Below are positions 1 through 53,989 of a stretch of 54,258 bases of DNA, in pieces (the stretch's first letter is position 1; every line of letters begins with the position of its first letter). Both the position numbers and the translations under genes were made by a program. This stretch comes from Bacteroidota bacterium (GTDB lineage Bacteria > Bacteroidota > Rhodothermia > Rhodothermales > Rubricoccaceae): positions 1 to 54,258 of the forward strand of contig JBCDFF010000001.1 in NCBI GenBank assembly GCA_039178415.1. The letters are read 5' to 3'. Below the pieces are notes generated by a model that did no database searches, had not been told where the DNA came from, and saw only the letters and a program-made list of their open reading frames with translations.

Positions 1-1
1 C

Positions 2-55
2 CTGCTGCGCGACCACCACGCCAAGCTGGTTGCCGAGGCGGCGCGTGCGACCTGA
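2..55 (+). CDS. 3' end of an unidentified CDS (partial, runs off the left edge)
   Basis: Frame 2 reads LLRDHHAKLVAEAARAT then TGA at 53-55, with GC-rich third positions like the rest of the window. It is followed by a hairpin at 83-116. Too short to identify. Confidence 0.3.
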   Translation: MLRDHHAKLVAEAARAT

Positions 56-82
56 GCGGTAGGTCCCGGAGGGCAGACATAG

Positions 83-116
83 GCGTAGCCTCTCCGGAGG
101 CGAGGAGAGGCTACGT
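83..116. terminator. GC-rich hairpin between convergent CDS end and tRNA-Asn 3' end (possible bidirectional terminator)
   Basis: Arms gtagcctctcc (85-95) and ggagaggctac (104-114) are perfect complements. The stem is extended by c84:g115, with an 8-nt loop. Confidence 0.5.
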
Positions 117-127
117 TCGGCGCGGGG

Positions 128-199
128 CGCCCCGGGTAGGATTCGAACCTACGACCCTGCGGTTAACAGCCGCATGCTCTACCGCTGAGCTACCGAGGC
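128..199 (-). tRNA. tRNA-Asn (anticodon GTT)
   Basis: Reverse complement folds as a cloverleaf: acceptor GCCTCGG/CCGGGGC, D arm GCTC..GAGC, anticodon stem TGCGG/CCGCA with loop CTGTTAA (GTT), T arm GTAGG-TTCGAAT-CCTAC. No encoded CCA. Confidence 0.9.
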
Positions 200-39012: not shown

Positions 39013-41397
39013 ATGCAGACTCCTGAGCCAGGCCGCGAGCGCGGCGCTTCCTCTGGGGGGTACTCGTACACTCCCTCGCCGACCAAGAACAAGCAGTTGG
39101 AGCAGATCCTGGATATGCTCTACCGGCGTCGGATGATTATCATCGCGGCGCTCGTCCTCGTCACGACCGGGGCCTTGGTCTACAGCTTTATGACGGAGCC
39201 GGAGTACAAGACCGGCTCCCTAATTATGCTAGAGCTGAACCGCGCCCCGAGCGGAGGAAGCGGTGCCGAGACCGAGACGCCGTTCATCCGCAGCGACCGC
39301 ACGATCCTGACGGAACTCTTCATCCTCCAGAACGACCAGGACATCCACCGCCGGGTCTACGAGCGGCTGAAGGAAATGAACGAGTCGGACCCGACCGTCA
39401 GCTACCCGCCCGAAGGGCAGGTGGTCTTCACCCCAGCCAGTCGATCGCTGGACAACGCGCTCCAGGTGACGTCGGTCAGCACGAGCCCGAGGGAGGCGGC
39501 TCGGCTGGCCAACATCTACGCAGAGGAATACGTCCGGCAGACCCAGGACGTGAGCCGGAACTACCTCGACCAGACGTACGGCTTCCTGAAGCAGCAGGAG
39601 GAGCAGCGCCTGGAAGAACTGCGCGTCGCAGAAGAAGAGGCGCAGCGATTCACGGAAGCGAACCAAGCGGCAGGCCTCACGCAGTCCGGCGAGGCTGTGG
39701 TGGCACAGATCGCCAGCCTGGAAGCGCAGCGCGAAGCCGCCGAGCTAGACCGCCAGATGAAGCTCGCGCAGATGGCAACGACCGAGGACGCGCTCAACGA
39801 GATCAGCCCCCAGTTGGCTGACCGCATGTCCTCTGAGACAGACCGCGAGCTGGCCGCGCTGCAGCAGCAGATCGCAAGCCTGGAGGGGCAGCGGCAGACC
39901 ATTCTCGGCTACGAGACCAGCCAGGGAACGGGGACGGAAGAAGCACAGGAACGCCGCGCTGCCGACCTCGAAGGCATCGACCGGCGTCTGCAGGCGGCGC
40001 GGGCCGAGGTGCGCGAGCTTTCGGAGACCTACGTGGAAGAAGTCCTCGCAGCCGGCGGCATCGACCAGGGGCAGGGTGCTGTGAGCTATGCGGCGGAGCT
40101 TCGCCGCCAGATGACGACAGACAACATCACGCTCGACGGTCTCAATGCCCGCATCAACCTGATGAACACGCGCATCCGGGAGATGGAGGGCGACCTGAGC
40201 CAGATTCCCGGGCAGTCGACGGAGTTTGCCCGGCTGCAGCGCCAGCGCCAGCAGGCAGAGCAGATGTACCAGTTCGTCGTGGAGCGCCTCCAGGAGACGG
40301 AGATTGCGCAGCAGTCCGAGCCAGGCTACGCCCGCATCCTGCGCGAGGCACCCGTGCCCAGAGTGCCCGACGGCCCGAGCCGGTGGAACACGATAGCGAT
40401 GGGCCTGCTGCTGGGCCTTGCGCTCGGTACCGGCCTGGCCTTCGCCCGCGACAAGCTCGACAACCGCATCTACAAGCCGGACCAGCTCCGCGACCGCGAC
40501 CAGAACGTCATCGGGGTCATCCCGAACATGGAGCCGCACATCAAGCAGGTCTACGACGGCGCGCTCTTCACGGAGTTCAACGGGAACGACGTGTCGACGA
40601 GCCTGACGACAGCGCTCGACCCGCTCTCGGCAGCCTCGGAGGCGTACCGGCACCTCCGCACCGCTGTCCAGTTCAGCCGCCCCGGCGTGATGGTGCAGAC
40701 GCTCCTGGTGACGAGCGCGGCCCCCTCGGAGGGCAAGTCCACGACAGCGGCCAACCTCGCGCTGACGATGGCGCAGGCCAAGCGCCGGACGCTGCTCATC
40801 GATGCCGACATCCGGCGGCCCAAGCAGCACACCCTCCTCGGGCGCCCGCTGGAGCCGGGTCTCGTGCAGGTGCTCCTCGACGGTGAGCAGTCCCTGCAAG
40901 CGTTCCAGACCTCGCTCGACGAGAACCTCTACGTCATGCCGGCCGGCGGCCTGCTGGACAACGGCGTCGAGGACGAAGCGTTCACCGGGGGCATCGACCC
41001 CACGCTCGTGGAGAGCCCCTCGGAACTGCTCGGGTCGAAGCGCATGCGCGACGTGCTCGAGATGCTGCGCGGCCAGTTCGACATCATCATCATCGACACG
41101 CCGCCGGTCTTGGCCGCCACCGAGCCGGTGCTACTCTCGACCCAGGCCGATGCGACGATCATCGTGGCCGCCGCCGGCAAGACGAAGGAGGGCGACCTCG
41201 ACCATAGCCTCGAGCGCCTCTCGGACGTCGGCGCGCATGTCATCGGGACGATGCTCAACCGGTTCGACCTGTCGCTGGCCTACGGCTACAAGTACAGCTA
41301 CGGGGTTTACGGACCGTACTCCAAGTACAGCTACGGTCCAGGAGAGCAGACAATCGAGCCCTGGTGGAAGCCGTCGCGCTGGTCCCACAAAGCCTAG
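39013..41397 (+). CDS. Polysaccharide co-polymerase / BY-type tyrosine autokinase (Wzc/GumC-like)
   Basis: N-terminal Wzz-like TM and a long coiled-coil periplasmic region. C-terminal kinase with Walker A SAAPSEGKSTTAANLA and Walker B IIIDTPPVLA. Terminal Tyr cluster YGYKYSYGVYGPYSKYSYGPG. Confidence 0.9.
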   Translation: MQTPEPGRERGASSGGYSYTPSPTKNKQLEQILDMLYRRRMIIIAALVLVTTGALVYSFMTEPEYKTGSLIMLELNRAPSGGSGAETETPFIRSDRTILTELFILQNDQDIHRRVYERLKEMNESDPTVSYPPEGQVVFTPASRSLDNALQVTSVSTSPREAARLANIYAEEYVRQTQDVSRNYLDQTYGFLKQQEEQRLEELRVAEEEAQRFTEANQAAGLTQSGEAVVAQIASLEAQREAAELDRQMKLAQMATTEDALNEISPQLADRMSSETDRELAALQQQIASLEGQRQTILGYETSQGTGTEEAQERRAADLEGIDRRLQAARAEVRELSETYVEEVLAAGGIDQGQGAVSYAAELRRQMTTDNITLDGLNARINLMNTRIREMEGDLSQIPGQSTEFARLQRQRQQAEQMYQFVVERLQETEIAQQSEPGYARILREAPVPRVPDGPSRWNTIAMGLLLGLALGTGLAFARDKLDNRIYKPDQLRDRDQNVIGVIPNMEPHIKQVYDGALFTEFNGNDVSTSLTTALDPLSAASEAYRHLRTAVQFSRPGVMVQTLLVTSAAPSEGKSTTAANLALTMAQAKRRTLLIDADIRRPKQHTLLGRPLEPGLVQVLLDGEQSLQAFQTSLDENLYVMPAGGLLDNGVEDEAFTGGIDPTLVESPSELLGSKRMRDVLEMLRGQFDIIIIDTPPVLAATEPVLLSTQADATIIVAAAGKTKEGDLDHSLERLSDVGAHVIGTMLNRFDLSLAYGYKYSYGVYGPYSKYSYGPGEQTIEPWWKPSRWSHKA

Positions 41398-41528
41398 GGC
41401 ATTATATTGCCAGCCCTCTGAATCGCTAGTCCGATTCCCGCTGTGCGCCGTGCGTGAGGCCTCGGAGGCCGCGCGCGGCGCACAGAGCGTACCGGCCCCC
41501 TCAGCTCTGCCTTCTACTCGCTAAGCGC

Positions 41529-42032
41529 ATGAGACGCCTCGCTCTTCCGTTCGCCACCGCCGCTCTGATCGCACTCGCCTCTCTTCCGGTACAGGCACAG
41601 CAGACTCCTGTGGCCGTGGGCGGGGTGCGCTACACGGTCTTCCATCTGCCGGGAGAGGCTACCAAGGAAGTCGTGCTGATGGGAGATCAGCAGAGCGGGA
41701 TCTATGTCATCGGAGAGACGATCACGCTGGACAAGTTCTTGGCCCTCACGGGTCTCTCCTTTTTCGAGCGTGAAACGGAAAGAGTAGAGATCAGGAAGAC
41801 GGTACGCGTGTTCCGCGAGCAAGGAGGCGAGCGCGTCGCCGTCTACGAAGCGCGGACGGAGGAGATGCTGGTCCAGTCCGAGGCCTATCCGACCCTCCAG
41901 GACAGAGATATCATTGCGATCGAGACGCAGTCGCTCAGGGGATTTGACTACCGGCAGGTGCTCCAGACAGTCTCCCAGCTAGCCACCTTGACGCTGCTCG
42001 GACTTCGCCTCTACGACGCGTTCAACAACTGA
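41529..42032 (+). CDS. Small secreted protein with SLBB-like beta-grasp pattern (Wza-related fragment?)
   Basis: Signal peptide MRRLALPFATAALIALASLPVQAQ. VVLMGDQQSGIYVIGETITLDKFLALTG and TLQDRDIIAI resemble SLBB motifs. No Poly_export domain is evident. Confidence 0.35.
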   Translation: MRRLALPFATAALIALASLPVQAQQTPVAVGGVRYTVFHLPGEATKEVVLMGDQQSGIYVIGETITLDKFLALTGLSFFERETERVEIRKTVRVFREQGGERVAVYEARTEEMLVQSEAYPTLQDRDIIAIETQSLRGFDYRQVLQTVSQLATLTLLGLRLYDAFNN

Positions 42033-42086
42033 CCGGCAGGCTGTCCAGCCGAGAGCTGCGGTGGAGGTCAGAACAGTGTCTAAGCC

Positions 42087-42098
42087 ATGAAATTTCAT
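42087..42098. promoter_or_regulatory. Perfect AT-rich 12-bp palindrome ATGAAATTTCAT in the intergenic region upstream of the WecA-like gene
   Basis: Read directly. Stands out in a GC-rich intergenic region. No known operator assigned. Confidence 0.2.
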
Positions 42099-42413
42099 CG
42101 TACGATAATGGCCCGTCCCGAGCGTCGGTGTCGTATATAGCACCAGGTGCGAGCATTACCCGCACGTCTCGCCGGTCTCCTGTATCTCCAAACAGTGCGC
42201 CAGTACCGCCGAGGCACGGCGGCGCTGAGCGCACCCGCCGGGCACTGAAGAACAGAGCAAGAATATGGGCCTCAGTAATTACAGGTCCTCGCGTCCATCC
42301 ACAAAGGGCACGATTCCGGTACTACTCCACACCGATCTCGCGCAGCCCAACACGGAGCCGGCCTCGCACCTGACGGACAGCCGCTCTAGGCAGAAACTCA
42401 CCCACGCGGTCCT

Positions 42414-43679
42414 ATGGAGTATTCGGTACTAATCATCCTGATCACGGGCTTCTTCGTCGCCTTCGGTACGACAGGACTGCTGACACCGATCGTGCGCCGC
42501 CTCGCCATCGAGCGGGACTGGGTTGACCACCCGGATGGACACCGTAAGCTCCACACGACCATTGTTCCGGCCGTCGGCGGCATCGCTATCGCCATCGGTT
42601 TTGCCGTAGGGCTGGCGTACCTGCATGCCGTCCGGGACCTGCTGAACTTCGATGTCCAGTTCCCGTCGAGCGCGCTGTGGATAGGAGCCCTCGTCATCGT
42701 AGCGTCGGGCTTCTACGACGACACACGCGGGCTGGGCTTCAAGGGTAAGTTCGCCGTGCAGGTGCTGGTGGCCTATGCCCTGCTCCATGCAGGCTACCGG
42801 ATCGACGTGACGGGGCTGCCGTTCGTGGGAGAGGACCCATACACCCACGCGCTGATCTCGATGCCGCTGACGCTGCTCTGGGTCGTGGGGGTCATCAACG
42901 CGGTCAACCTGCTCGACGGGCTCGACGGGCTCGCGGCCGGCGTTTCGCTCATCGCGTTTGCCTCGCTGGGCCTCATCTTCGGGATGGGCGGCGAACTGGG
43001 GCTGGTCTTGATCGCGCTCATCATCACCGGGGCGCTCGCCGGGTTCTTGCTCTTCAACTTCAACCCGGCCTCCATCTTCATGGGAGACTCCGGGAGCCTC
43101 TTCCTGGGCTACCTGCTGGCGACGTACACCCTCTCCGGCCCGGGGCATGCCGATCCGTGGCTGGCCCTGCTCATCCCGGCTGTGGTGCTCGGCCTTCCGC
43201 TGATCGACACGGCGCTCTCGATCGCGCGCCGCTTCGCGGGACGCCAGGCGATCTTTGCGCCGGACCGCGACCACATCCACCACCGCCTCACGCGGACGTT
43301 CACGCATCGCCAGGCCGTTCTGGTGCTCTACGCGGTTGCGCTCTCGTTCGGCGTGGCGGCCGTGGCGATGAGCATGATGGCAGCCGTCTACAGCGTCGGC
43401 ATAATCGCTGTCATGCTGGTGCTGACCGGTGTAGGTCTGAACAGGCTCAAGTACCTACGCCGCAGCTACGTCGAGCCAGACGTGCATTCCATCGGTGGAT
43501 TCTTGGAGCGCGAGGAGGAGCCCGCTTCTGCACCGTTCGAGGCGGCGGACGCGCGCGACGAGGACGTGCTGGCGGAACCGGTGGCGGCTGGCACGGGCAA
43601 CGGCAGGGTGCACGACGGGCACGGTACCGAGCGAGCCGGCTCGAGGTCGGATTTCAACATGTCGGGTGCTACATCCTGA
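42414..43679 (+). CDS. wecA: Undecaprenyl-phosphate HexNAc-1-phosphate transferase (WecA/TagO, MraY-like GT4 family)
   Basis: VDHPDGHRKLH, FYDDTRGL, NAVNLLDGLDGLAAG and NFNPASIFMGDSGSLFLGY are the conserved WecA/MraY-family motifs. Confidence 0.85.
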   Translation: MEYSVLIILITGFFVAFGTTGLLTPIVRRLAIERDWVDHPDGHRKLHTTIVPAVGGIAIAIGFAVGLAYLHAVRDLLNFDVQFPSSALWIGALVIVASGFYDDTRGLGFKGKFAVQVLVAYALLHAGYRIDVTGLPFVGEDPYTHALISMPLTLLWVVGVINAVNLLDGLDGLAAGVSLIAFASLGLIFGMGGELGLVLIALIITGALAGFLLFNFNPASIFMGDSGSLFLGYLLATYTLSGPGHADPWLALLIPAVVLGLPLIDTALSIARRFAGRQAIFAPDRDHIHHRLTRTFTHRQAVLVLYAVALSFGVAAVAMSMMAAVYSVGIIAVMLVLTGVGLNRLKYLRRSYVEPDVHSIGGFLEREEEPASAPFEAADARDEDVLAEPVAAGTGNGRVHDGHGTERAGSRSDFNMSGATS

Positions 43680-43836
43680 GGCTGGCAGTGCGCGCTCGCT
43701 GGACAGATCCGCGAGCGATCCGGCACCAAATCGGCGCGCCGCCGGTAAAAGTCGAGCAGGCATAGATTCTTCTGCCCGATCATTCCTATACTCCCACCTT
43801 CAATCTCGCCACGGGGTACCACACGTGAATCTGCTC

Positions 43837-44127
43837 ATGATCACAGAGCAATCGACCATTGCCGTAACTCAAGGCCTGACGGCTGCCGACCTCGGCGGAG
43901 AAGCCGTTGTGCTGGACCCTAACTCAGGCCGTTACTACGGCCTCAACGAGTTGGGCGCGCGGATATTCGACCTCGCGAGGAAGCCGCGCTCGGTGGAGTG
44001 GATCATGGAAGCGCTGCTCCAGGAGTACGACGTGGAAGAGCGCAAACTAAAGGAAGATCTGTTGGCCTTCTTGCACGAGATGGAGCAGCGTCAACTCATC
44101 GAGGTCACCGATGGACCTGCTGCGTAA
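43837..44127 (+). CDS. PqqD-family RiPP recognition element (lasso peptide B1)
   Basis: About 96 aa. AADLGGEAVVLDPNSGRYYGLNELGARIFDL...LLQEYDV....L..DLLAFLHEMEQRQLIEV is the PqqD/RRE pattern. Overlaps B2 by 17 nt. Alternative GTG start at 43825. Confidence 0.8.
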   Translation: MITEQSTIAVTQGLTAADLGGEAVVLDPNSGRYYGLNELGARIFDLARKPRSVEWIMEALLQEYDVEERKLKEDLLAFLHEMEQRQLIEVTDGPAA

Positions 44128-44557
44128 GTTCGCCGGCCGCACCTGGGCCGACAAGCGGCTCCTGCTGCGCTCGCTCGCTCTCGTGGTGGGGGTGCGGGCT
44201 GGCCTCTGGGTGTTGCCGTACCGTACGGTTCAGCGTCTGGTTGAAGCAAAGCCGGGCCCCGTGCCCCCCGTAAGCACGCGGGACGGGGCTCCCTACCAGC
44301 GGCGCGTCGTAGCCGCCGTAGAATCTGTGGGGCGGCGGCTGCTCGGCGACAAGCCATGCCTAGTCCAAGCGCTCGTGGCGCAGCGGTTGCTGCGGCAGGG
44401 CGGGTACGAGACCTCGCTGCACCTCGGAGTCGCTAAAGACGGGCGGAAGCTCCTCGCGCACGCGTGGCTCGAACGCGACGGCTACGTGGTGATTGGCGGC
44501 GGACGATCGCAGTTTCAGTACACGCCGCTCAGCCCGGTCGGGCCGGACGCCGCGTGA
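44111..44557 (+). CDS. Lasso peptide leader protease B2 (transglutaminase-like Cys protease)
   Basis: KPCLVQALVAQRLLRQGGYETSLHLGV......LLAHAWLERDGYVVIG shows the Cys...His-containing McjB C-terminal-like motif. Its stop overlaps the cyclase GTG (GTGA). Confidence 0.8.
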   Translation: MDLLRKFAGRTWADKRLLLRSLALVVGVRAGLWVLPYRTVQRLVEAKPGPVPPVSTRDGAPYQRRVVAAVESVGRRLLGDKPCLVQALVAQRLLRQGGYETSLHLGVAKDGRKLLAHAWLERDGYVVIGGGRSQFQYTPLSPVGPDAA

Positions 44558-46677
44558 GTGCTGTTGCCGGGCTATACCATCTGAACGGTCAGGGCGCGGA
44601 CCAGGACGCGCTGCGCCGCATGGTTGATGCGATGCCGCACTGCGGGCCGGACGGTGCCGAGGTGTGGAGCCGGGGACCGGTAGGCCTCGGGCACCGGATG
44701 CTCCACACGACGCCTGAGTCGCTGCACGAAGTCCTACCGCTGGCGAACGCCGCCGGCACGCTCGCAGTCACTGCCGACGCCCGGATCGACAACCGGGCCG
44801 AACTGCTGGAGCAACTGCATCTCGGCGACAGCGAAGAATCAGTCACGGACAGCGCGCTCATCCTCGCGGCCTACGAGACCTGGGGCGAGCAGTGCCTCGA
44901 TCACCTCGTCGGCGACTTCGCCTTCGCCATTTGGGACGAGGCGGCGCAGCACCTCTTCTGCGCGCGCGACCACTTTGGTGTCCGGCCGTTCTACTATCAT
45001 CACCGGGCGGGCCGGCATTTCGCGTTCGGTACTGAGATCAAGGCGCTGCTTGCCGTCCCCGGCGTGCCGCAGCGGCTCAACGAGGTGCGCCTCGCGGACT
45101 TTCTCGCCACGATGCGGGAGGACCCGGAGAACACGATCTACCAGGAGGTCTTCCGGCTGCCTGCCGCACACGCGCTCGTTGTCTCGCCCGATGCGCTGCG
45201 GGTCTGGCGCTACTACACCCTCGCCCCAGCGACCGATGTTCCGCCGGACGCCTCCGACGCGGAGTACGAAGCGCGCTTCCGGGAGCTGTTCACCCAGGCC
45301 GTTCGCGCTCGGCTCCGCAGCGCATTTCCCGTCGGCTCCGAGTTGAGCGGCGGCATGGACTCCTCGTCGATCACGGCAGTCGCAGGGCAGATCATGGCGG
45401 ACGAGGGGAAGCCGCTCCACACGGTCTCGCTGGTCTACGACGACATCGAGGCGTGCGACGAGAGCCCCTTCATCAACGCCGTACTGGAGCAGGAGGGCGA
45501 CTTCGTTCCACACTTCGTCAAGGGCGACCGGCTCGGCCCGCTCTCCAACCTGGACGACGTGTACACGTATCTCGACGACGGCCTCGCCAGCGGCAACCAG
45601 CACCTGGTCTGGGCGGCGAAAGCCGCCGCGGGCGATGCCGGGATCCGCGTGCTGCTCGACGGCCTCGACGGCGACAACGTGGTGGGGCATGGGTTGCTCT
45701 ACCTCAAGGAGCTCGCCGAGACAGGCGACTGGGAGGCGTTCGCGCGCGAGAGCAAAGCGGCGGCGCGGCAGTTCCAACGCACCGAGCAGCGCCACAACTT
45801 CGAGGACAGCTTCGCTAGCCTCGACACCGCCTTCAACCGCTTCGGCCTGGCGCGCCTCCAGACCCTGGCCGACGAAAGCCGTTGGGGGGCGTTCTTCAAG
45901 GAGCTGGCGGCTGCCGAGCGGCTCTTCGGGGTGAAGCGCTCGGACGTGCTGCGGCTCCTGTGGCGGCGGCTCGTGCAGCCGGCGGCGCTTCTGCGCGCGC
46001 GCGACGCCCGGCGGAACGACAGCAACAATGCGGCGCGCCCCAAGCCGCTGCTTCCGCTCCTCGACCCGGACTTTGCCGAGCGTATCGGGATGGCCGAGCG
46101 TCTGCAGCGCTTCGAGGACCAGAAGCCAAACCTGACGACGGTACGGGACGTGCAGCGCCAGCTCCTGAACGGCTCGCGGATCCAGACGGCGCTCGAACTC
46201 ACGACGCATGCGAGCGCGGCCCACGGGATCGAGATCCGGCACCCCTTCTTCGACAAGCGGCTCGTCGAGTTCTGCCTCGCGCTGCCGCCGGGGCAGAGCC
46301 TGAAAGACGGGTGGACCCGGTCCATCCTGCGCCGCGCGCTCGGCGGCATCCTGCCGGAGAAGGTGCAGTGGCGCGTCGGCAAGGCGTGGCTCGCGCCGAA
46401 CTTCGAGCGCGGGCTCTACGAGCAGGACCGGGCACTGCTTGACGAGCACGTCGCGGACCTCGGCCCGCTGCGCCCATACGTGGACAAGAGCGTAGTCGAT
46501 GGCCTCTACCGCAGGGGAAAAGACGTTCCCAATATCGAGCAGGCACAGCTCGCTCGCATCACCACGCTCTCGTTCTGGCTGAAGAAGCGCTTCCCGACCT
46601 TAACGGAAGGTGAGACGCTGGCCTCGTCCGGCGGGTGCGACGGCGACCGCGGAGCCACGGTGCCTCAGGGGCCGTAG
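44554..46677 (+). CDS. Lasso peptide cyclase (asparagine-synthetase-like, McjC type)
   Basis: AsnB-like throughout (SELSGGMDSSSI PP-loop), but the N-terminus is (V)SAVAGLYHL, with Ser where AsnB has the glutaminase Cys2, as in lasso cyclases. Flanked by B2 and the precursor. Confidence 0.85.
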   Translation: MSAVAGLYHLNGQGADQDALRRMVDAMPHCGPDGAEVWSRGPVGLGHRMLHTTPESLHEVLPLANAAGTLAVTADARIDNRAELLEQLHLGDSEESVTDSALILAAYETWGEQCLDHLVGDFAFAIWDEAAQHLFCARDHFGVRPFYYHHRAGRHFAFGTEIKALLAVPGVPQRLNEVRLADFLATMREDPENTIYQEVFRLPAAHALVVSPDALRVWRYYTLAPATDVPPDASDAEYEARFRELFTQAVRARLRSAFPVGSELSGGMDSSSITAVAGQIMADEGKPLHTVSLVYDDIEACDESPFINAVLEQEGDFVPHFVKGDRLGPLSNLDDVYTYLDDGLASGNQHLVWAAKAAAGDAGIRVLLDGLDGDNVVGHGLLYLKELAETGDWEAFARESKAAARQFQRTEQRHNFEDSFASLDTAFNRFGLARLQTLADESRWGAFFKELAAAERLFGVKRSDVLRLLWRRLVQPAALLRARDARRNDSNNAARPKPLLPLLDPDFAERIGMAERLQRFEDQKPNLTTVRDVQRQLLNGSRIQTALELTTHASAAHGIEIRHPFFDKRLVEFCLALPPGQSLKDGWTRSILRRALGGILPEKVQWRVGKAWLAPNFERGLYEQDRALLDEHVADLGPLRPYVDKSVVDGLYRRGKDVPNIEQAQLARITTLSFWLKKRFPTLTEGETLASSGGCDGDRGATVPQGP

Positions 46678-46791: not shown

Positions 46792-46980
46792 ATGAAGACC
46801 TACAGCGCACCCATGCTCACCGAGTACGGCGACGTGGCCGCGATCACGGCGACGCTGGGCGACCCCTTCACGGGCGACCAGTCGTTCGACGTGGACGGCA
46901 ACGTGATCGAGGAAGGACTCAACTCGATCAACCAGTGCCCGACGCTCGAGTTCGAGACGTGCCACTTCGAGAACCCGTAG
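46792..46980 (+). CDS. Lasso peptide precursor (62 aa)
   Basis: MKTYSAPMLTEYGDVAAITATLGDPFTGDQSFDVDGNVIEEGLNSINQCPTLEFETCHFENP. The leader fits YxxPxLx3Gx5Tx exactly (Y4,P7,L9,G13,T19). A Gly-x5-Asp (GDPFTGD) macrolactam candidate follows. Located immediately after the cyclase gene. Confidence 0.7.
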   Translation: MKTYSAPMLTEYGDVAAITATLGDPFTGDQSFDVDGNVIEEGLNSINQCPTLEFETCHFENP

Positions 46981-47130: not shown

Positions 47131-48045
47131 ATGCACCGTTACAAGGCTTTCGGACTTTCGATCCACTCAGACATCGCGCTCTCCGGTTTCGCCCCGGGCA
47201 GCAGCCTGCCGGACATTACGATCCAGAAGGGCGACCTGCGCGTGCGGAAGACGGCACCGGGCGCGCGGCACGGGAACGTCGTCTCGGGGCACATCAAAGA
47301 GGACCACTGGGACCTGGACCTCCTCTTCCACATCCAGGGCGGCGAGGTGGTCACCTACGACACGCTGAAGCCGCTCTCCGAGGACCTGCTCCGCAGCTTC
47401 GTGCAGGGCGCGCTCCTGGCCGCCGTCCTGCGGCAGCGGCACCTCCTCGTGCTTCACGGCTCGGCGGTCTCCGACGGCGAGCAGGCCATCGCCTTCCTCG
47501 GCAACTCCGGCTGGGGCAAGTCCACGCTCGCCGAATACTTCTGCCAGCGTGGGTACGAACTCATCACCGACGACGTGATGGTGGTCGTCCCCGGCACTGA
47601 GGCCGAGCCGGCGCGCATCCCCCCGGGCGTCAAGCAGGTCCGCCTCCGCCCCCATTCCGCTGAGCGGCTTGTCGAGGACTACGAGAGCCTCCCGCTGGTC
47701 ACTGAGGTCTCGGCCAAGCGCCTGCGCGTTCTAAAGGGCGAGGAGGTGCGGTCGATACCCCTGTCGAAGCTGTACATTCTGCAGCGGCAGACGGCCGACG
47801 CGAACCGCATCACGCCGCTGGACCCGCAGCAGGTCCCGCTTCACTGCGTCGCCCACACGCACGCCACCAACTGGATCACCGACCCTGAGTACGTCTCGGA
47901 GCACTTCAGGCAGTGCGCCCAACTCGCCAAGCACACGCCGGTCGCCCTCCTGGAGCGTATCCTGTCGCTCGACGCGCTCCCGGATATCTACGACCTCGTC
48001 ACGGCCGACGTCGACGAGCTCTCCGCGAGTGAGCAGCCCACCTAA
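47131..48045 (+). CDS. HPr-kinase-like serine kinase associated with lasso clusters
   Basis: LVLHGSAVSDGEQAIAFLGNSGWGKSTLAEYFCQRGYELITDD matches the HprK C-terminal P-loop domain pattern seen in lasso-associated kinases (PadeK/ThcoK type). Confidence 0.7.
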   Translation: MHRYKAFGLSIHSDIALSGFAPGSSLPDITIQKGDLRVRKTAPGARHGNVVSGHIKEDHWDLDLLFHIQGGEVVTYDTLKPLSEDLLRSFVQGALLAAVLRQRHLLVLHGSAVSDGEQAIAFLGNSGWGKSTLAEYFCQRGYELITDDVMVVVPGTEAEPARIPPGVKQVRLRPHSAERLVEDYESLPLVTEVSAKRLRVLKGEEVRSIPLSKLYILQRQTADANRITPLDPQQVPLHCVAHTHATNWITDPEYVSEHFRQCAQLAKHTPVALLERILSLDALPDIYDLVTADVDELSASEQPT

Positions 48046-48056
48046 GCAGTCCCCCG

Positions 48057-49991
48057 ATGACAGCAGCGCAAACGTGGCGGCACAGAGCCGATGACCTGAA
48101 GCTGCGGGCCTCCTACGTGCGGATGGCCCTCCGGCTGATCTGGTCGGCGGCGAGCACCTGGACGGTGCTATGGTTCGCGCTGCTCGCGGTGCAGGGCACC
48201 CTCCCGGCGGCGGTCGTCTACCTCACGAAGTGGCTCGTCGACAGCCTCGCCGCAGCGGTGGCCGGAGAGGTCGGCCTCGGCGCGGTGATCGCGCCGGCCG
48301 CACTGATGGGCGGCATCATGATCCTCCAGCGCGTCCTCGGCGGGATCAACGAGTGGGTCTCGACGGCCCAGGCCGAACTCGTCGGGGACCGGGTGAAGGA
48401 GCTCGTCCACGAGAAGGCGACCGAGGTGGACTTCGGGTTCTACGAGTCGGCGGACTACCACGACAAGCTGGAGCAGGTCAACTCGCAGGCCAACAGCCGC
48501 GTGCTCCAGCTCCTCAAGAACATCGGCGGGCTGCTGCAGGCGGCTGTGACGCTGCTCTCGATCTCGGCGATCCTGCTCAGCTACAGCCTGTGGCTCCCGC
48601 TCGTGCTCATCGTGAGCACGCTGCCCGCGTTCTTCGTCGTCGTGCGGCACAACAAGAAGTACCACGCGTGGTGGAAGGGGTCGACCGCCCGCCGCCGCCT
48701 CGCGCAGTACTTCGACCTCATGGTGACCTTCGACGCCTCGGCGGCCGAGGTGCGGATCAACAACACGGGCACCTACTTCCGCACGCGCTACATGGCGCTG
48801 CGCAAGGCGCTGCGCGAGGAGCGGCTCGACCTCCTCAAGCGGCAGGTGCTGGCGCGGCTCTTCGCTACGTTCCTCGGCCTCCTCGCCACCGCCGGCGCGA
48901 TGCTCTGGGTGGTGCTCCGGGCGACGCGCGGCGCGGCCACGCTCGGCGACCTCGCTCTCTTTTACCAGGCGTTCAATCAGGGCCAGGCACTCGTCGGCGG
49001 GCTGCTCCAGAACATGGGGCAGATCTACACCAACACGCTCTTCCTAGAGCACCTCTTCGATTTCCTCGACCAGGAGAACGCCCTCGAAGAATCCGAGGCA
49101 CCGACGCCGTTCCCGGCCCGGATCGACGAAGGGGTCCGGTTCGAAGACGTTTCCTTCAGCTATCCCGGTTTCGAGCGGAAGGCCCTCGAAGGGTTCAGCC
49201 TTACGATCCCGGCCGGCAAGATCGTCGCCATCGTCGGCGAGAACGGGGCGGGCAAGAGCACGTTCATCAAGCTCCTCTGCCGGTTCTACGACCCGACGGC
49301 CGGGCGCATCACAGTCGACGGGACCGACCTCCGCGACTTCGCGCAGGCGGACCTCCGCCGCCACGTCTCGGTGATGTTCCAGGTGCCGATGAAGTACCAG
49401 ATGACGGCCGAGCAGAACATCCGCCTCGGCGACCTCGCCCGCGAGACGGGCCGCGACGCGGTCCAGGCGGCGGCGGTCGGCGGCGGGGCGCACGAGGTGA
49501 TCCAGAAGCTGCCGCAGACCTACGACCAGGTGCTCGGGCGCTGGTTCGAGACGGGGAGCGAACTGAGCGGGGGCGAGTGGCAGCGCGTGGCGCTCTCGCG
49601 GGCGTTTTTCCGCGAGGCCCCCATCGTCGTCCTCGACGAGCCGACGAGTTCGATGGACTCGTGGGCCGAGAACGAGTGGCTGGCACGGTTCCGACGGATG
49701 GTCGAGGGCCGAACGGCGCTGCTGATCACGCACCGCTTCACAACCGCGATGCAGGCCGACGTCATCCACGTCATGGACGCTGGCCAGGTCGTCGAGACGG
49801 GCACGCACGACCAACTGCTGGCCCTCGGCGGGCGCTACGCGGCGTCGTGGCGCGCCCAGATGCGGCAGGAGGAAGGCACGGTCGAGTCGATCGCGGGCGA
49901 GTCCGTCCTCGGCGACGGCCTCGCGGGGGAGGAAGCCGCCGGCGTGCATCCGACCCTCGACGCGGACGCGGAGCCGCCCTCGGTGCGATGA
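48057..49991 (+). CDS. Fused TMD-NBD ABC exporter (McjD-like lasso exporter/immunity)
   Basis: Six N-terminal hydrophobic segments. Walker A GENGAGKST, signature LSGGEWQR, Walker B IVVLDEPTS. Confidence 0.9.
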   Translation: MTAAQTWRHRADDLKLRASYVRMALRLIWSAASTWTVLWFALLAVQGTLPAAVVYLTKWLVDSLAAAVAGEVGLGAVIAPAALMGGIMILQRVLGGINEWVSTAQAELVGDRVKELVHEKATEVDFGFYESADYHDKLEQVNSQANSRVLQLLKNIGGLLQAAVTLLSISAILLSYSLWLPLVLIVSTLPAFFVVVRHNKKYHAWWKGSTARRRLAQYFDLMVTFDASAAEVRINNTGTYFRTRYMALRKALREERLDLLKRQVLARLFATFLGLLATAGAMLWVVLRATRGAATLGDLALFYQAFNQGQALVGGLLQNMGQIYTNTLFLEHLFDFLDQENALEESEAPTPFPARIDEGVRFEDVSFSYPGFERKALEGFSLTIPAGKIVAIVGENGAGKSTFIKLLCRFYDPTAGRITVDGTDLRDFAQADLRRHVSVMFQVPMKYQMTAEQNIRLGDLARETGRDAVQAAAVGGGAHEVIQKLPQTYDQVLGRWFETGSELSGGEWQRVALSRAFFREAPIVVLDEPTSSMDSWAENEWLARFRRMVEGRTALLITHRFTTAMQADVIHVMDAGQVVETGTHDQLLALGGRYAASWRAQMRQEEGTVESIAGESVLGDGLAGEEAAGVHPTLDADAEPPSVR

Positions 49992-50590
49992 GACTCCCGC
50001 AGTGGCTCGCCTACGGACTCGCCCCCGCCGTCCTCGTGCTCGGCGTGGCCCTCCAGCGCTACAACGTGGCGGTCCACGACCAGACGAAGTGGACCGGCGG
50101 CGGCTTCGCTATGTTCTCGACGGTCGACGTGCCGGGCGCGCGCGCGCTCCGCGCCTACGTGGTCACGGACCAGGGCGAGGCGCTCGCGGTCGAGCCCGAC
50201 TACGGCATCGAGCGGCGGCTCGTCTACACCCAGCCTAAGCAGGAGCGTCTCCACGCCGTAGCCCAGCACCTCGCCGCCCAGACCTGGCGCGTCTACGATG
50301 CCTCGACGTACCTGGAGGTCTGGCCGTCGCTCCCGGACTTTCTCCAGCGCTACTTCCAGCGCTCCGACGCCTGGCAGGCTGCCTGGACAGACTCGGCTTC
50401 CACCGAGGGTCTCTACCCCGGCCACCTCGCCTTCGCTGCACGCCGCGCGCCGTACAACGGGCGCCCGGCAGAGGTCGCGATCACCGGTGCCCGCGTCGAG
50501 GTCTGGAAGCCCGTCTTCGACCCCGACGCCGAGGAGCTCAGCTGGCAGCGGATCGCCGAGGCTACGGCGCAGACGGCCTCGGCCGAGTAA
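49988..50590 (+). CDS. Small N-terminally anchored protein (possible SdpA/DUF5819-like), copy 2
   Basis: The ATG at 49988-49990 overlaps the ABC exporter TGA (49989-49991). MRLPQWLAYGLAPAVLVLGVAL is a TM helix. The KWTGGGFAMFSTVD motif is shared with 4914-5585. The N-terminal 606 codons of ORF 48170-50590 are an out-of-frame shadow of the ABC gene. Confidence 0.5.
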   Translation: MRLPQWLAYGLAPAVLVLGVALQRYNVAVHDQTKWTGGGFAMFSTVDVPGARALRAYVVTDQGEALAVEPDYGIERRLVYTQPKQERLHAVAQHLAAQTWRVYDASTYLEVWPSLPDFLQRYFQRSDAWQAAWTDSASTEGLYPGHLAFAARRAPYNGRPAEVAITGARVEVWKPVFDPDAEELSWQRIAEATAQTASAE

Positions 50591-50596
50591 GTACGC

Positions 50597-51508
50597 ATGG
50601 ACGCGTCCGCCCAAACGCCCACCGTGTCACCCCCGCCCGAAGGCGGCCTGCGCGCCCTCGTCCGGCGTCCGGTCGACGCCCTCCTCCGGGCTGATCTCTT
50701 CGAGCTAGGCGCGGCGATGACGCTCCTGATGATCGTGCTGTCGCTGCACGAGCCGTCGTGGCCGGTCAAGCTCGGGCTCGTGACGCTCACCGCGACGGCG
50801 CTCGTGCTGCGCCCGCTGATGCGGAACCCGCTGCTGTGGCTCGGCCTCGTCGGCGTCCTCGTGCTGGCCTACACCCAGACGTGGTACCAGCAGAACAACC
50901 ACGACTACCTCAAGCTCTACTGGTGCCTCGGCGTCGGGGTCTCGCTCCTCGCCGCCGAGCCGCTGCGGGCGGTGCGTGTCAACGCCCGCATTCTCATCGG
51001 GCTCTGCTTCCTGTTTGCGACCGTCTGGAAAGCCGTCTCGGTGGACTACATGAGCGGCGCGTTCTTCAACTACTTCCTCCTCCAGGACACGCGCTTCGAA
51101 CTCTTCGCCGACCACCTCGTCGGCCTCGACCCGAGCGTGCTGATGCAGGAACGTGCTGGCCGGGTGTTCTACACCGCGTTCGGCGATCCGGCGGGTGTGC
51201 TCGCCGTGCCGTTCGCGGCCGAAGCCCGGTGGCTCGGGGTTGCGATGACGTGGTGGACACTCCTCATCGAGGGGGCCGTAGCTCTGGCCTTTCTCCTCCC
51301 GGCGCGGTTCACCCTGGCGAAGTGGCGCGACGCCGTGCTCCTGGTGTTCATCTTCTCGACCTACTTCATCGCTCCCATCCTCTACTTCGCATGGCTCATC
51401 ACAGCGATGGGCCTGATCCAGTGCGAGCGGGAGACGTTCCGCTACGCTCCGGTCCTGTATGTGGCAGCCTTCGTGCTCGTCCTGATGCGGTTTTACCTTC
51501 CAGTATGA
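50597..51508 (+). CDS. Polytopic membrane protein, HTTM-like (vitamin K gamma-carboxylase/SdpB-like), copy 2
   Basis: QQNNHDYLKLYWCL, LFATVWKAVSVDYMSGAFF, MTWWTLLIEGAVALAFLL. Colinear with 3971-4903 over the whole length. Confidence 0.6.
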   Translation: MDASAQTPTVSPPPEGGLRALVRRPVDALLRADLFELGAAMTLLMIVLSLHEPSWPVKLGLVTLTATALVLRPLMRNPLLWLGLVGVLVLAYTQTWYQQNNHDYLKLYWCLGVGVSLLAAEPLRAVRVNARILIGLCFLFATVWKAVSVDYMSGAFFNYFLLQDTRFELFADHLVGLDPSVLMQERAGRVFYTAFGDPAGVLAVPFAAEARWLGVAMTWWTLLIEGAVALAFLLPARFTLAKWRDAVLLVFIFSTYFIAPILYFAWLITAMGLIQCERETFRYAPVLYVAAFVLVLMRFYLPV

Positions 51509-52671
51509 CGAACAACGCGGGGCTAGGTGCGGCTCCCCGACCGGCGCGGCGCGGAAGGCGGGTGGTGCGCCTCGGCCTGCGTGTGGCCGAGGTCGCACTC
51601 GTCGGCCTGCTCATCATGGCCTTCACGGCGGCCTACGTGCCCCCGGACACGCTCTGGTGGGGGCAGTTTGTCGCCATCTTCAGCGGCCTGCTGCTCGCCA
51701 TCGTCGCGGTCGTCGCAGCCATCGCTGCGGTCAAGCGGCAGTGGCGGCGGGCCGCGCTGCACGCCTCGCTCCTCACCGGTGCCCTGCTGATGCCCGCTCT
51801 CAGCGCCCGCCCTGACCCGGTCCCCGCCCCGCCCGACGCGCCGGGGCTGACCGTGATGACGTTCAACGCGAGCGTGCGGCACGCCGGCAGCGAGCAGGAC
51901 GCCCTCGCCGCCCTCCTGGCCCGCGACAAGCCCCACCTCATCGCGCTCCAGGAATTCTCCATCCGCCTGATCCGCGAAACGGGCGTCACGATGGGCGCGC
52001 CGCTGCTCGGGCCGCTGCTCAAGGACCGGGCGTACGAAGCGTCCTGGCCCGACACCGAGGGCAAGGACTACCTCTTCAGCCGTCCGATCTTCTCGCGCAT
52101 CCAGGCGCAGGAGCAGGGCGAGGTCCTGGCCGGCGACCCCCCGACAGGTCCTCGGTCCGGCGGACTGTGGTCCTCTGGCGGCATCACGCGCCGGCTCTAC
52201 CGGTGGGACGGCCGGACAATCGCCCTCTACAACGTGCACCTCCACTCGTTCAGCAGCCACCGCCCGTGGCGCGAGGCGGACGAGCGGTTTTCGCTCCGGG
52301 CCTGGGCGGACGCGCTCCAGGACTACCGCCGGGACTTCGAGGTGCGCGCCGAGCAGGCCCGCGTCCTGCGACGCCTCCTGGATGAGGAAGCGCATCCGTT
52401 CATCGTCTGCGGCGACTTCAACAGCACGCCTCGAAGCTGGGTCTACGCCTACCTCCAGCAGGGCCTCCGCGACGCGTTCCGGGAGGCCGGATCGGGATGG
52501 GGCGCTACGTTCCCCGCGCGCCTTCCGCTCATCCGCATAGACTATCTCCTCGTCAGCGATGCGTGGTCCGTGCGCCGGGCCTACGTAGACACCGGCCTGG
52601 CCTCCGACCACCGACCGGTCATCGCAGAGCTCGTGCTGCGGACGGAGCCGGAACCGACCGCGAACCGGTAG
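51505..52671 (+). CDS. Membrane-anchored endonuclease/exonuclease/phosphatase (EEP) family protein
   Basis: The ATG overlaps the HTTM gene stop (ATGA). There are 2-3 N-terminal TM helices. Then LTVMTFNA..., IALQEF, VCGDFNSTP and LASDHRPVIAEL, the EEP catalytic motifs. Confidence 0.75.
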   Translation: MTNNAGLGAAPRPARRGRRVVRLGLRVAEVALVGLLIMAFTAAYVPPDTLWWGQFVAIFSGLLLAIVAVVAAIAAVKRQWRRAALHASLLTGALLMPALSARPDPVPAPPDAPGLTVMTFNASVRHAGSEQDALAALLARDKPHLIALQEFSIRLIRETGVTMGAPLLGPLLKDRAYEASWPDTEGKDYLFSRPIFSRIQAQEQGEVLAGDPPTGPRSGGLWSSGGITRRLYRWDGRTIALYNVHLHSFSSHRPWREADERFSLRAWADALQDYRRDFEVRAEQARVLRRLLDEEAHPFIVCGDFNSTPRSWVYAYLQQGLRDAFREAGSGWGATFPARLPLIRIDYLLVSDAWSVRRAYVDTGLASDHRPVIAELVLRTEPEPTANR

Positions 52672-52861: not shown

Positions 52862-53989
52862 ATGGCGACCATACACCCCGACGAGGCCGGCGCACGACCA
52901 GAATACAAGGCCCTAGTGCTCTGCTGCCGGACCGAGCTGACGCCCGCACACGCCGACCACCTCGCGCGGTACCTGAGCGACGAGGATTTGCAGTGGAACT
53001 ACCTGGTCACGCTGGCCGGGTACCACGGGGTGCAGCCGCTGCTCTACTGCCACCTCCGGAGCATGGAAGAGCACTTGCTCTCTGAGAAGCACATGACGTG
53101 GCTGCGCGGCGTCGTCGGGGCACGCTCGGCTCACAGCCTGGTGCTGATGCAGGAGCTAGGCCGCCTAACCGAACTCTGTGCTCAGCAGCACCTCCCCATG
53201 CTCGCAGTGAAAGGGGCGGTCCTGGCCCAGAGTGTGTACGGCGGCGTTGCCCTCCGGCCCTTCGCAGACATCGACCTCGTGATCCGGCGCGAGGACTTTA
53301 CGCACCTGGAGACGCTGCTCCGGCAGCAGGGCTACGGATCCAGGAAGATGAGCCCGTTCCAGAAGACGAGCTACCTCTACATCAACGGCCAGTACACCTT
53401 CTGGCGGCGCATCCCGAGCCTGGGCGAAGCCGCCGCGTTCATCGACGTGCACACCGCCATCATGCCGCCGGGCTACGCCTACTCGGAAAACTTCGACGCA
53501 CTGACGGCGCGCTCCGTGACCGTGCCGGTTGCCGGACGCCAGGTGCCGACGCTCGGGCGCGAGGACCTGCTCCAGGTGATCTGCTACCACGGCTTCAAAA
53601 ACCGGTGGGACCGGTTCAAGTACATCTGCGACCTCGCCGAGCTGATCCGCGCGTCCCCGGACATGGACTGGGAAGCAGCGTACCACCGGATGCACGCGAT
53701 GCGCAGCCGGCGCGTACTCCGGCTGGGCCTGTTCCTCGCCTCCGCGCTGCTGGACGCTCCGCTGCCCAGGCAGGTCTGGGAGGACGTGCGGGAGGACCGC
53801 CGCGTCAGGGACATCGGGCACGCCATCATCGACCGGCTGCCCAGACAGGCCCACATCAAGGTGGAGCCCTACTGGGAGCGCGTGCGGCTCAACGTCTTGG
53901 CGCAGGACACAGTCGGGGGCGGGCTCCGGTACGGGGCGTATTCCGCCGCCCGCAAAGTGACCGACCTGTACCTGCCTGCAGGCGAGTAG
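52862..53989 (+). CDS. Uncharacterised nucleotidyltransferase family protein (NTP_transf_5-like)
   Basis: LAVKGAVLAQSVYGGVALRPFADIDLVIRREDFTHLETLLRQQGY is the hallmark block of this family, which is known to accompany kinase-containing lasso clusters. Confidence 0.6.
   Translation: MATIHPDEAGARPEYKALVLCCRTELTPAHADHLARYLSDEDLQWNYLVTLAGYHGVQPLLYCHLRSMEEHLLSEKHMTWLRGVVGARSAHSLVLMQELGRLTELCAQQHLPMLAVKGAVLAQSVYGGVALRPFADIDLVIRREDFTHLETLLRQQGYGSRKMSPFQKTSYLYINGQYTFWRRIPSLGEAAAFIDVHTAIMPPGYAYSENFDALTARSVTVPVAGRQVPTLGREDLLQVICYHGFKNRWDRFKYICDLAELIRASPDMDWEAAYHRMHAMRSRRVLRLGLFLASALLDAPLPRQVWEDVREDRRVRDIGHAIIDRLPRQAHIKVEPYWERVRLNVLAQDTVGGGLRYGAYSAARKVTDLYLPAGE

Follow-up and report, generated by a model that had tools for sequence, protein, structure and literature searches.

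Here we report that a 54,258-nucleotide stretch of DNA from a Rubricoccaceae bacterium (contig JBCDFF010000001.1; the whole stretch is hereafter referred to as the window) encodes a P-loop kinase of the HprK/phosphoenolpyruvate carboxykinase (PEPCK) fold, with intact catalytic residues, in a lasso peptide operon whose precursor carries no C-terminal serine. By analogy with characterized enzymes, the kinase is most likely active and dedicated to the lasso precursor. Its target is probably an internal hydroxyl of that precursor, and we see an even chance for the narrower proposal, read from sequence conservation, that it phosphorylates the linear precursor specifically at Ser45. The kind of enzyme and the existence of internal sites were already known; the large and distinct kinase clade, the very long precursors and the conserved mid-tail Ser motif are new. 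The clade comprises hundreds of clusters in Rhodothermales and cyanobacterial producers (Moorena, Nostoc and Scytonema), and its precursors are approximately twice the usual lasso length and have one conserved Ser in common. Our literature search found nothing on cyanobacterial or Rhodothermales lasso peptides, or on this kinase clade.

To our knowledge, HprK-like kinases are the commonest tailoring enzymes of split-B lasso clusters, and we know of only three kinds of site mapped for them: a C-terminal Ser, Ser3 of the ring and S3 of a linear peptide. PadeK, ThcoK, SyanK and PsmK act on their precursors in linear form and phosphorylate the Ser at the C-terminus (PMC9266682, PMC6993621), and PsmN, an uncharacterized NTP transferase, places a hexose on the PsmK-made phosphate of pseudomycoidin (PMC6993621). 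BsfK from Bradymonas sediminis, reported in 2023, phosphorylates its precursor, which has Asp as the last residue, at Ser3; the reaction is leader-dependent and stimulated by B1, and mutagenesis revealed that H148, GxxGxGKS and D186–D187 are needed (PMC10368454). LppK, reported in 2026, phosphorylates S3 of a linear peptide (PMC13381572). The original prediction took the C-terminal Ser to be the usual substrate of such kinases, which is correct for PadeK, ThcoK, SyanK and PsmK but is not a general rule, as the Ser3 of BsfK and the S3 of LppK demonstrate. There is therefore precedent for a lasso kinase whose substrate is not a C-terminal Ser.

The kinase gene sits inside a complete, tightly packed lasso operon, in which the order is GT4, B1, B2, C, precursor, kinase, ABC exporter, two membrane-protein genes, EEP phosphoesterase and NTP_transf_5:

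42414–43679, + strand: WecA-like GT4 phosphosugar transferase, directly upstream of B1 (PF00953 and TIGR02380-like matches)
43831–44127, + strand: B1, a PqqD-type RiPP recognition element (RRE) (PF05402, 65.9 bits; lasso_PqqD_Bac, 69.5 bits)
44111–44557, + strand: B2 leader peptidase, transglutaminase-like (PF13471; NF033537 lasso_biosyn_B2, 90.7 bits)
44464–46677, + strand: C, lasso macrolactam cyclase (NF033535 lass_lactam_cya, 764.6 bits against a cut-off of 525)
46792–46980, + strand: lasso precursor A, 62 residues, MKTYSAPMLTEYGDVAAITATLGDPFTGDQSFDVDGNVIEEGLNSINQCPTLEFETCHFENP (NF033528 lasso_cyano and NF033521, both above cut-off)
47131–48045, + strand: HprK-like RiPP peptide kinase (K), 304 residues (open reading frame, weak HprK matches, invariant motifs and a structural model)
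48057–49991, + strand: D, MsbA-like ABC exporter (ABC_tran and MsbA-family matches)
51523–52671 (start codon approximate), + strand: membrane endonuclease/exonuclease/phosphatase-family (EEP) protein (PF03372, 72.5 bits)
52862–53989, + strand: NTP_transf_5 nucleotidyltransferase, of the same enzyme type as PsmN and LppN (PF14907, 177.5 bits)

The EEP gene is conserved downstream of D in loci from Rhodothermales. Between it and the exporter lie two genes (window 49988–51508) that are retained only in the closest relatives (U49, MEM; L021, L041–L044), and most other clusters of the kinase family are without them.

The predicted start of the kinase agrees with the starts of its homologues in the alignment. 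Curated profiles match the protein weakly: Pfam Hpr_kinase_C (PF07475) gives 22.2 bits against a cut-off of 33.3, NCBIfam HprK_rel_A and HprK_rel_B (TIGR04352 and TIGR04355) give 31.8 and 28.4 bits against cut-offs of 200, and hpr-ser (TIGR00679) gives 18 bits against a cut-off of 240. As these scores lie under the cut-offs, the kinase falls outside those curated families; PF27840 (PF27840.1) is the precomputed label on the window kinase and most of its homologues. The AlphaFold model (pLDDT 92.3, pTM 0.90) has PEP carboxykinase (E 4e-9, TMq 0.56) and Lactobacillus casei HprK/P (1kkl and 2qmh) as its top Foldseek matches, and PEPCK and HprK/P are the two known folds of HprK-type P-loop kinases. 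A profile search of the PDB sequences with the kinase returned mostly generic ABC P-loop matches, the informative part being only the longer HprK stretch, which runs from the His to the Asp-Asp pair and matched the HprK entries 1jb1, 2qmh, 3tqf and 1ko7. The catalytic elements align with those of BsfK:

47455–47457, + strand: codon of the catalytic His109 (in LVLHGSAV), invariant, aligned to BsfK H148
47500–47526, + strand: P-loop G124-N-S-G-W-G-K-S-T132, invariant, aligned to BsfK GRSGAGKST
47569–47574, + strand: codons of Asp147–Asp148 (in ITDDV), the metal/catalytic pair, invariant, aligned to BsfK D186–D187

H109, G124-x-S-G-W-G-K-S-T132 and D147–D148 are unchanged throughout an alignment of 23 diverse homologues with identities down to 28%.

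A comparison with characterized enzymes places the window kinase among RiPP-associated kinases. It is 29% identical to BsfK over 202 residues (E 2e-12), and the two have in common the H/GxxGxGKS/DD motif, a B1/B2/C/K/D/N lasso cluster and a precursor without a C-terminal Ser. With PadeK, ThcoK, SyanK and PsmK, which act on the linear precursor and were compared by description, it shares the enzyme family and a setting in which the kinase is accompanied by a discrete RRE, an ABC exporter and often an NTP transferase. LppK differs in that the clusters for linear polyphosphorylated peptides (LPPs; Bacillota) have neither cyclase nor B2 and rely on a signal-peptidase-like enzyme to remove the leader, whereas the window has the full lasso set. 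HprK/P (PF07475, TIGR00679; 1kkl, 2qmh) has the same PEPCK-related P-loop fold, His and Asp-Asp, whereas the window kinase has a different N-terminal domain, a predicted RiPP-precursor substrate, an unrelated genomic context and scores far below the HprK cut-offs. The HprK/PEPCK fold, the His, GxxGxGK(S) and Asp-Asp motifs, and the PqqD-type RRE with a YxxPxL precursor are all present, as in RiPP and lasso kinases. The original assignment as a lasso-cluster HprK-like kinase is thus borne out by the weak HprK matches, the invariant motifs, the confident model and the complete operon.

More than 130 homologues of the kinase, called at most 'serine kinase', are present in the protein database, from Rhodothermales, Rubricoccaceae and many cyanobacteria, and a scan of species-representative genomes (one per species) identified 478 relatives. 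Gene context was counted at the 56 of the best 80 loci in which the kinase is flanked by 3 kb or more in each direction. The cyclase C is near the kinase at 53 of these 56 loci, B1 at 50 and a recognizable precursor also at 50; the ABC exporter D follows the kinase at 51, and NTP_transf_5 is nearby at 34, GT4 at 6 and an EEP protein at 6. With the cyclase at 53 of 56 loci and GT4 at 6, the kinase is tied to the peptide machinery and not to glycan genes, the reverse of a family that is unrelated to the peptide and always accompanies glycan genes, which the original prediction had envisaged as one outcome. For a tight sub-clade of kinases in Thermosynechococcaceae, Acaryochloridaceae and Altericista (L064, L079, L085, L104, L107, L112 and L113), neither a cyclase nor B1 nor a precursor was detected nearby.

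The GT4 gene is syntenic with the lasso operon across Rhodothermales and is missing from the cyanobacterial clusters, which retain B1-B2-C-A-K-D without GT4 or Wzc. The order of Wzc, a small SLBB protein, the WecA-like GT4 and then the lasso operon is kept across Rhodothermales families (window 39013–43679 and L021, L024, L025, L029, L032, L041, L042, L044 and L118), and persists even between loci whose kinases are just 35–40% identical. The polysaccharide export/initiation module and the lasso operon move as one in Rhodothermales.

The window precursor ends in ...TCHFENP, its last residue being Pro and not Ser, as originally stated, and so lacks the conserved terminal acceptor Ser of the paeninodin type. 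Its leader spans residues 1–20, with Y4xxP7xL9 and T19 at position −2, and characterized systems have YxxPxL at −17 to −12 and Thr at −2 (PMC10368454). By this leader rule (Tyr at −17, Thr at −2), the 42-residue core runs from Thr21 to Pro62, holds Cys49 and Cys57, and is predicted to form the ring T1–D9. Among related precursors, Thr occupies −2 almost without exception in the Thr21-type register, and core residue 1 is variable (A, I, F, V, L, T or D). The core thus probably starts at Thr21, two residues before the G1 of the original prediction. A start at that glycine (G3 in our numbering), with a seven-residue ring, is only a minor alternative, since it would put the Thr at −4 and the Tyr at −19. 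The internal hydroxyls listed originally (T5, S9, S23, T29 and T34) are correct in G1 numbering, although this numbering is probably two residues late. One of them is the residue of interest here:

46924–46926, + strand: codon of Ser45 (core S25; S23 in G1 numbering) in G-L-N-S-I-N-Q-C, the predicted phosphorylation site

To define what the precursors of this family have in common, we collected the 106 distinct cores found beside kinases that match the window kinase at E < 1e-35. These cores have a median length of 43 residues (range 30–53); position 3 is Gly in 92 of them, and position 9 is Asp in 101. The original prediction had suggested comparing the precursors of the closest kinase homologues for a C-terminal Ser, and this comparison found one in 3 of the 106 cores; in the clusters of PadeK, ThcoK, SyanK and PsmK, by contrast, the last-residue Ser is described as extremely conserved. 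Ser or Thr occurs at any one ring or near-ring position in at most 35 of the 106. S-x-D/N is found in the tail of 97 cores, compared with 41 on average and never more than 54 in 1,000 shuffles. For the more stringent [GNDS]-S-x-[DN] the count is 86, with shuffles averaging 19 and peaking at 31.

An iteratively refined site profile of 100 cores yielded the family motif G-S-x-D/N. Position 0 is Ser in 97 of the 100 (Thr in 2, Cys in 1), a proportion that is partly inherent in the procedure, which allowed only Ser, Thr or Cys as the site. Independent evidence comes from the residues on either side, with Gly at −1 in 75 and Asp or Asn at +2 in 93, and from the shuffle test. The median distance from D9 to the motif Ser is 18 residues, and another 5–28 residues come after this Ser, among them exactly two Cys in 64 of the 100 cores and none in 35. 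Across approximately 100 related precursors, no hydroxyl residue other than the motif Ser is conserved. The window motif, LNSINQC, is a weaker variant with N at both −1 and +2, and N-S-[IV]-[ND]-Q-C is retained in the four closest orthologues of the window precursor. Unlike the BsfK site, which is ring residue 3 of a 21-residue core, the conserved Ser of the window lies 16 residues past the ring Asp of a 42-residue core that has Gly at position 3.

The kinase phylogeny parallels these precursor types. In a maximum-likelihood tree of 106 kinases, in which BsfK forms a very long outlier branch, a branch with support of 95/80 divides the kinases into a clade of 87, including that of the window, and a clade of 17. 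Precursors that combine a long core with the internal motif predominate in the larger clade: by precursor, it comprises 64 kinases with this motif, 14 with none found, 5 with another type, 4 with both features and 0 with a terminal Ser only. Every precursor type that ends in Ser without the internal motif falls in the clade of 17. One cluster of each type occurs in several cyanobacterial genomes, such as L075, L077 and L110. In these three and in L057 and L071, also cyanobacterial, a second lasso cluster with Ser-ending precursors (such as ...GITLVPVS and ...NFQLPTS) lies nearby and, where fully covered, has its own, more distant kinase; the paired clusters provide a natural comparison for site specificity.

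A cyclase-centred sample, assembled for kinase-less controls, was not decisive because 35 of the 40 Rhodothermales loci have the kinase. The five loci without it include both kinds of precursor, Ser-ending (three precursors) and SxD-like. One of the Rhodothermales loci, L159, has SxD-like precursors and no kinase less than 7 kb from the cyclase; this is a mild counterpoint to a strict link between kinase and motif, tempered by the presence of a kinase in another cluster of that genome.

The original prediction offered three explanations for the missing terminal Ser: an internal target, a different substrate such as the adjacent glycan, or a tail that is trimmed first. Our data best support an internal residue and narrow it to Ser45 as the sole hydroxyl conserved in the approximately 100 precursors. 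Phosphorylation at another precursor hydroxyl, either near the ring (T21, T27 or S31) or between the cysteines (T51 or T56), is unlikely; all five residues are kept in the five closest orthologues, but none is conserved clade-wide, the Ser/Thr count at any ring or nearby position being at most 35 of 106 and position 3 being Gly in 92. Ser3 itself, considered by analogy with BsfK and LppK, was rejected since the window has Gly or Pro there in either register. We consider it very unlikely that the tail is trimmed after the conserved Ser, before or after phosphorylation, to leave a product that ends in (phospho)Ser like paeninodin, with the Cys-containing extension as a follower peptide. The C-terminal-Ser precursors of the sister kinase clade, the widely varying number of residues after the motif Ser (5 to 28) and the Chrysosporum precursors, which belong to the window kinase's own clade and end in Ser, would fit such trimming. 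Against it speak the exactly two Cys found past the Ser in 64 of 100 tails, which suggest a functional disulfide loop in the product, and the lack of any protease besides B2 in the operon, whose ABC exporter gave no peptidase-domain match.

A non-peptide substrate, for example a glycan or a lipid-linked intermediate of the polysaccharide locus, or a role as a mere ATPase or scaffold, is highly improbable. The gene order that links the lasso operon to Wzc, the SLBB protein and the WecA-like GT4 throughout Rhodothermales is in keeping with such a role, as is the Thermosynechococcaceae sub-clade of kinases without lasso genes nearby. However, this reading is weakened by the cyanobacterial B1-B2-C-A-K-D clusters that lack GT4 and Wzc, by the presence of GT4 at only 6 of the 56 well-flanked loci among the best 80, where the cyclase is near the kinase at 53, by the characterized relatives, all of which are peptide Ser kinases, and by the intact catalytic residues. 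Several counterpoints bear on Ser45 itself. The conserved Ser could have a role in folding, in the lasso plug or for a different enzyme, such as NTP_transf_5 or the HTTM-like pair; the window has a weaker variant of the motif; one cluster has a paralogue with Cys in place of the Ser; and the two internal sites mapped by experiment lie at core position 3 and not in the tail.

For phosphorylation at Ser45, we propose the following mechanism. By analogy with PadeK and BsfK, the kinase would modify the precursor in its linear form, with the PqqD-type B1 holding on to the leader, and it would target the internal Ser45 (core S25) in the G-S-x-D/N motif instead of a C-terminal Ser. B2 would subsequently remove the leader, and C would then close the ring. 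The phosphate might be extended by the downstream NTP_transf_5, as PsmN adds a hexose to the phosphate of pseudomycoidin. If correct, Ser45 would represent a third class of site, and it bears on whether the phosphate is a handle for glycosylation. In an extended version, which we regard as quite unlikely, the motif-Ser phosphate would serve as the handle for phosphoglycosylation by NTP_transf_5, GT4 and Wzc would join in Rhodothermales, and the product would be a lasso glycoconjugate. Such a product would consist of a long lasso peptide, capped by a disulfide, that bears a glycan or is tethered to one, and the bulky phosphoglycosyl group would act as its plug beneath the ring.

The window genome has one kinase and one lasso cluster, together with a second, stand-alone precursor paralogue, MKPYTKPALTEYGDVAAITATLGDPFTGDQSFDVDGNVIEEGLNSVNQCPTVDNEGCFFNEGGAP, at positions 633–830 of contig C409. 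The end of this contig overlaps window positions 1–141, placing the paralogue approximately 3 kb before the window start and approximately 50 kb from the operon; the contig carries no lasso genes beside it. A search of the window genome for a Ser-ending precursor elsewhere found none, this single paralogue ending in ...GGAP, again without a terminal Ser, and retaining LNSVNQC. Other clusters of the family contain three to five tandem precursor genes (L093, L100, L101 and L109 in Moorena; L024/L095 in Rubricoccaceae), with near-identical leaders and variable tails, all of which have the Ser motif and two Cys. In Nostoc spongiaeforme, Cys replaces the family Ser in one of three tandem precursors (L080:6189–6383), which reads LDGCPDGILIP against LDGSQNGVLIP in its neighbours.
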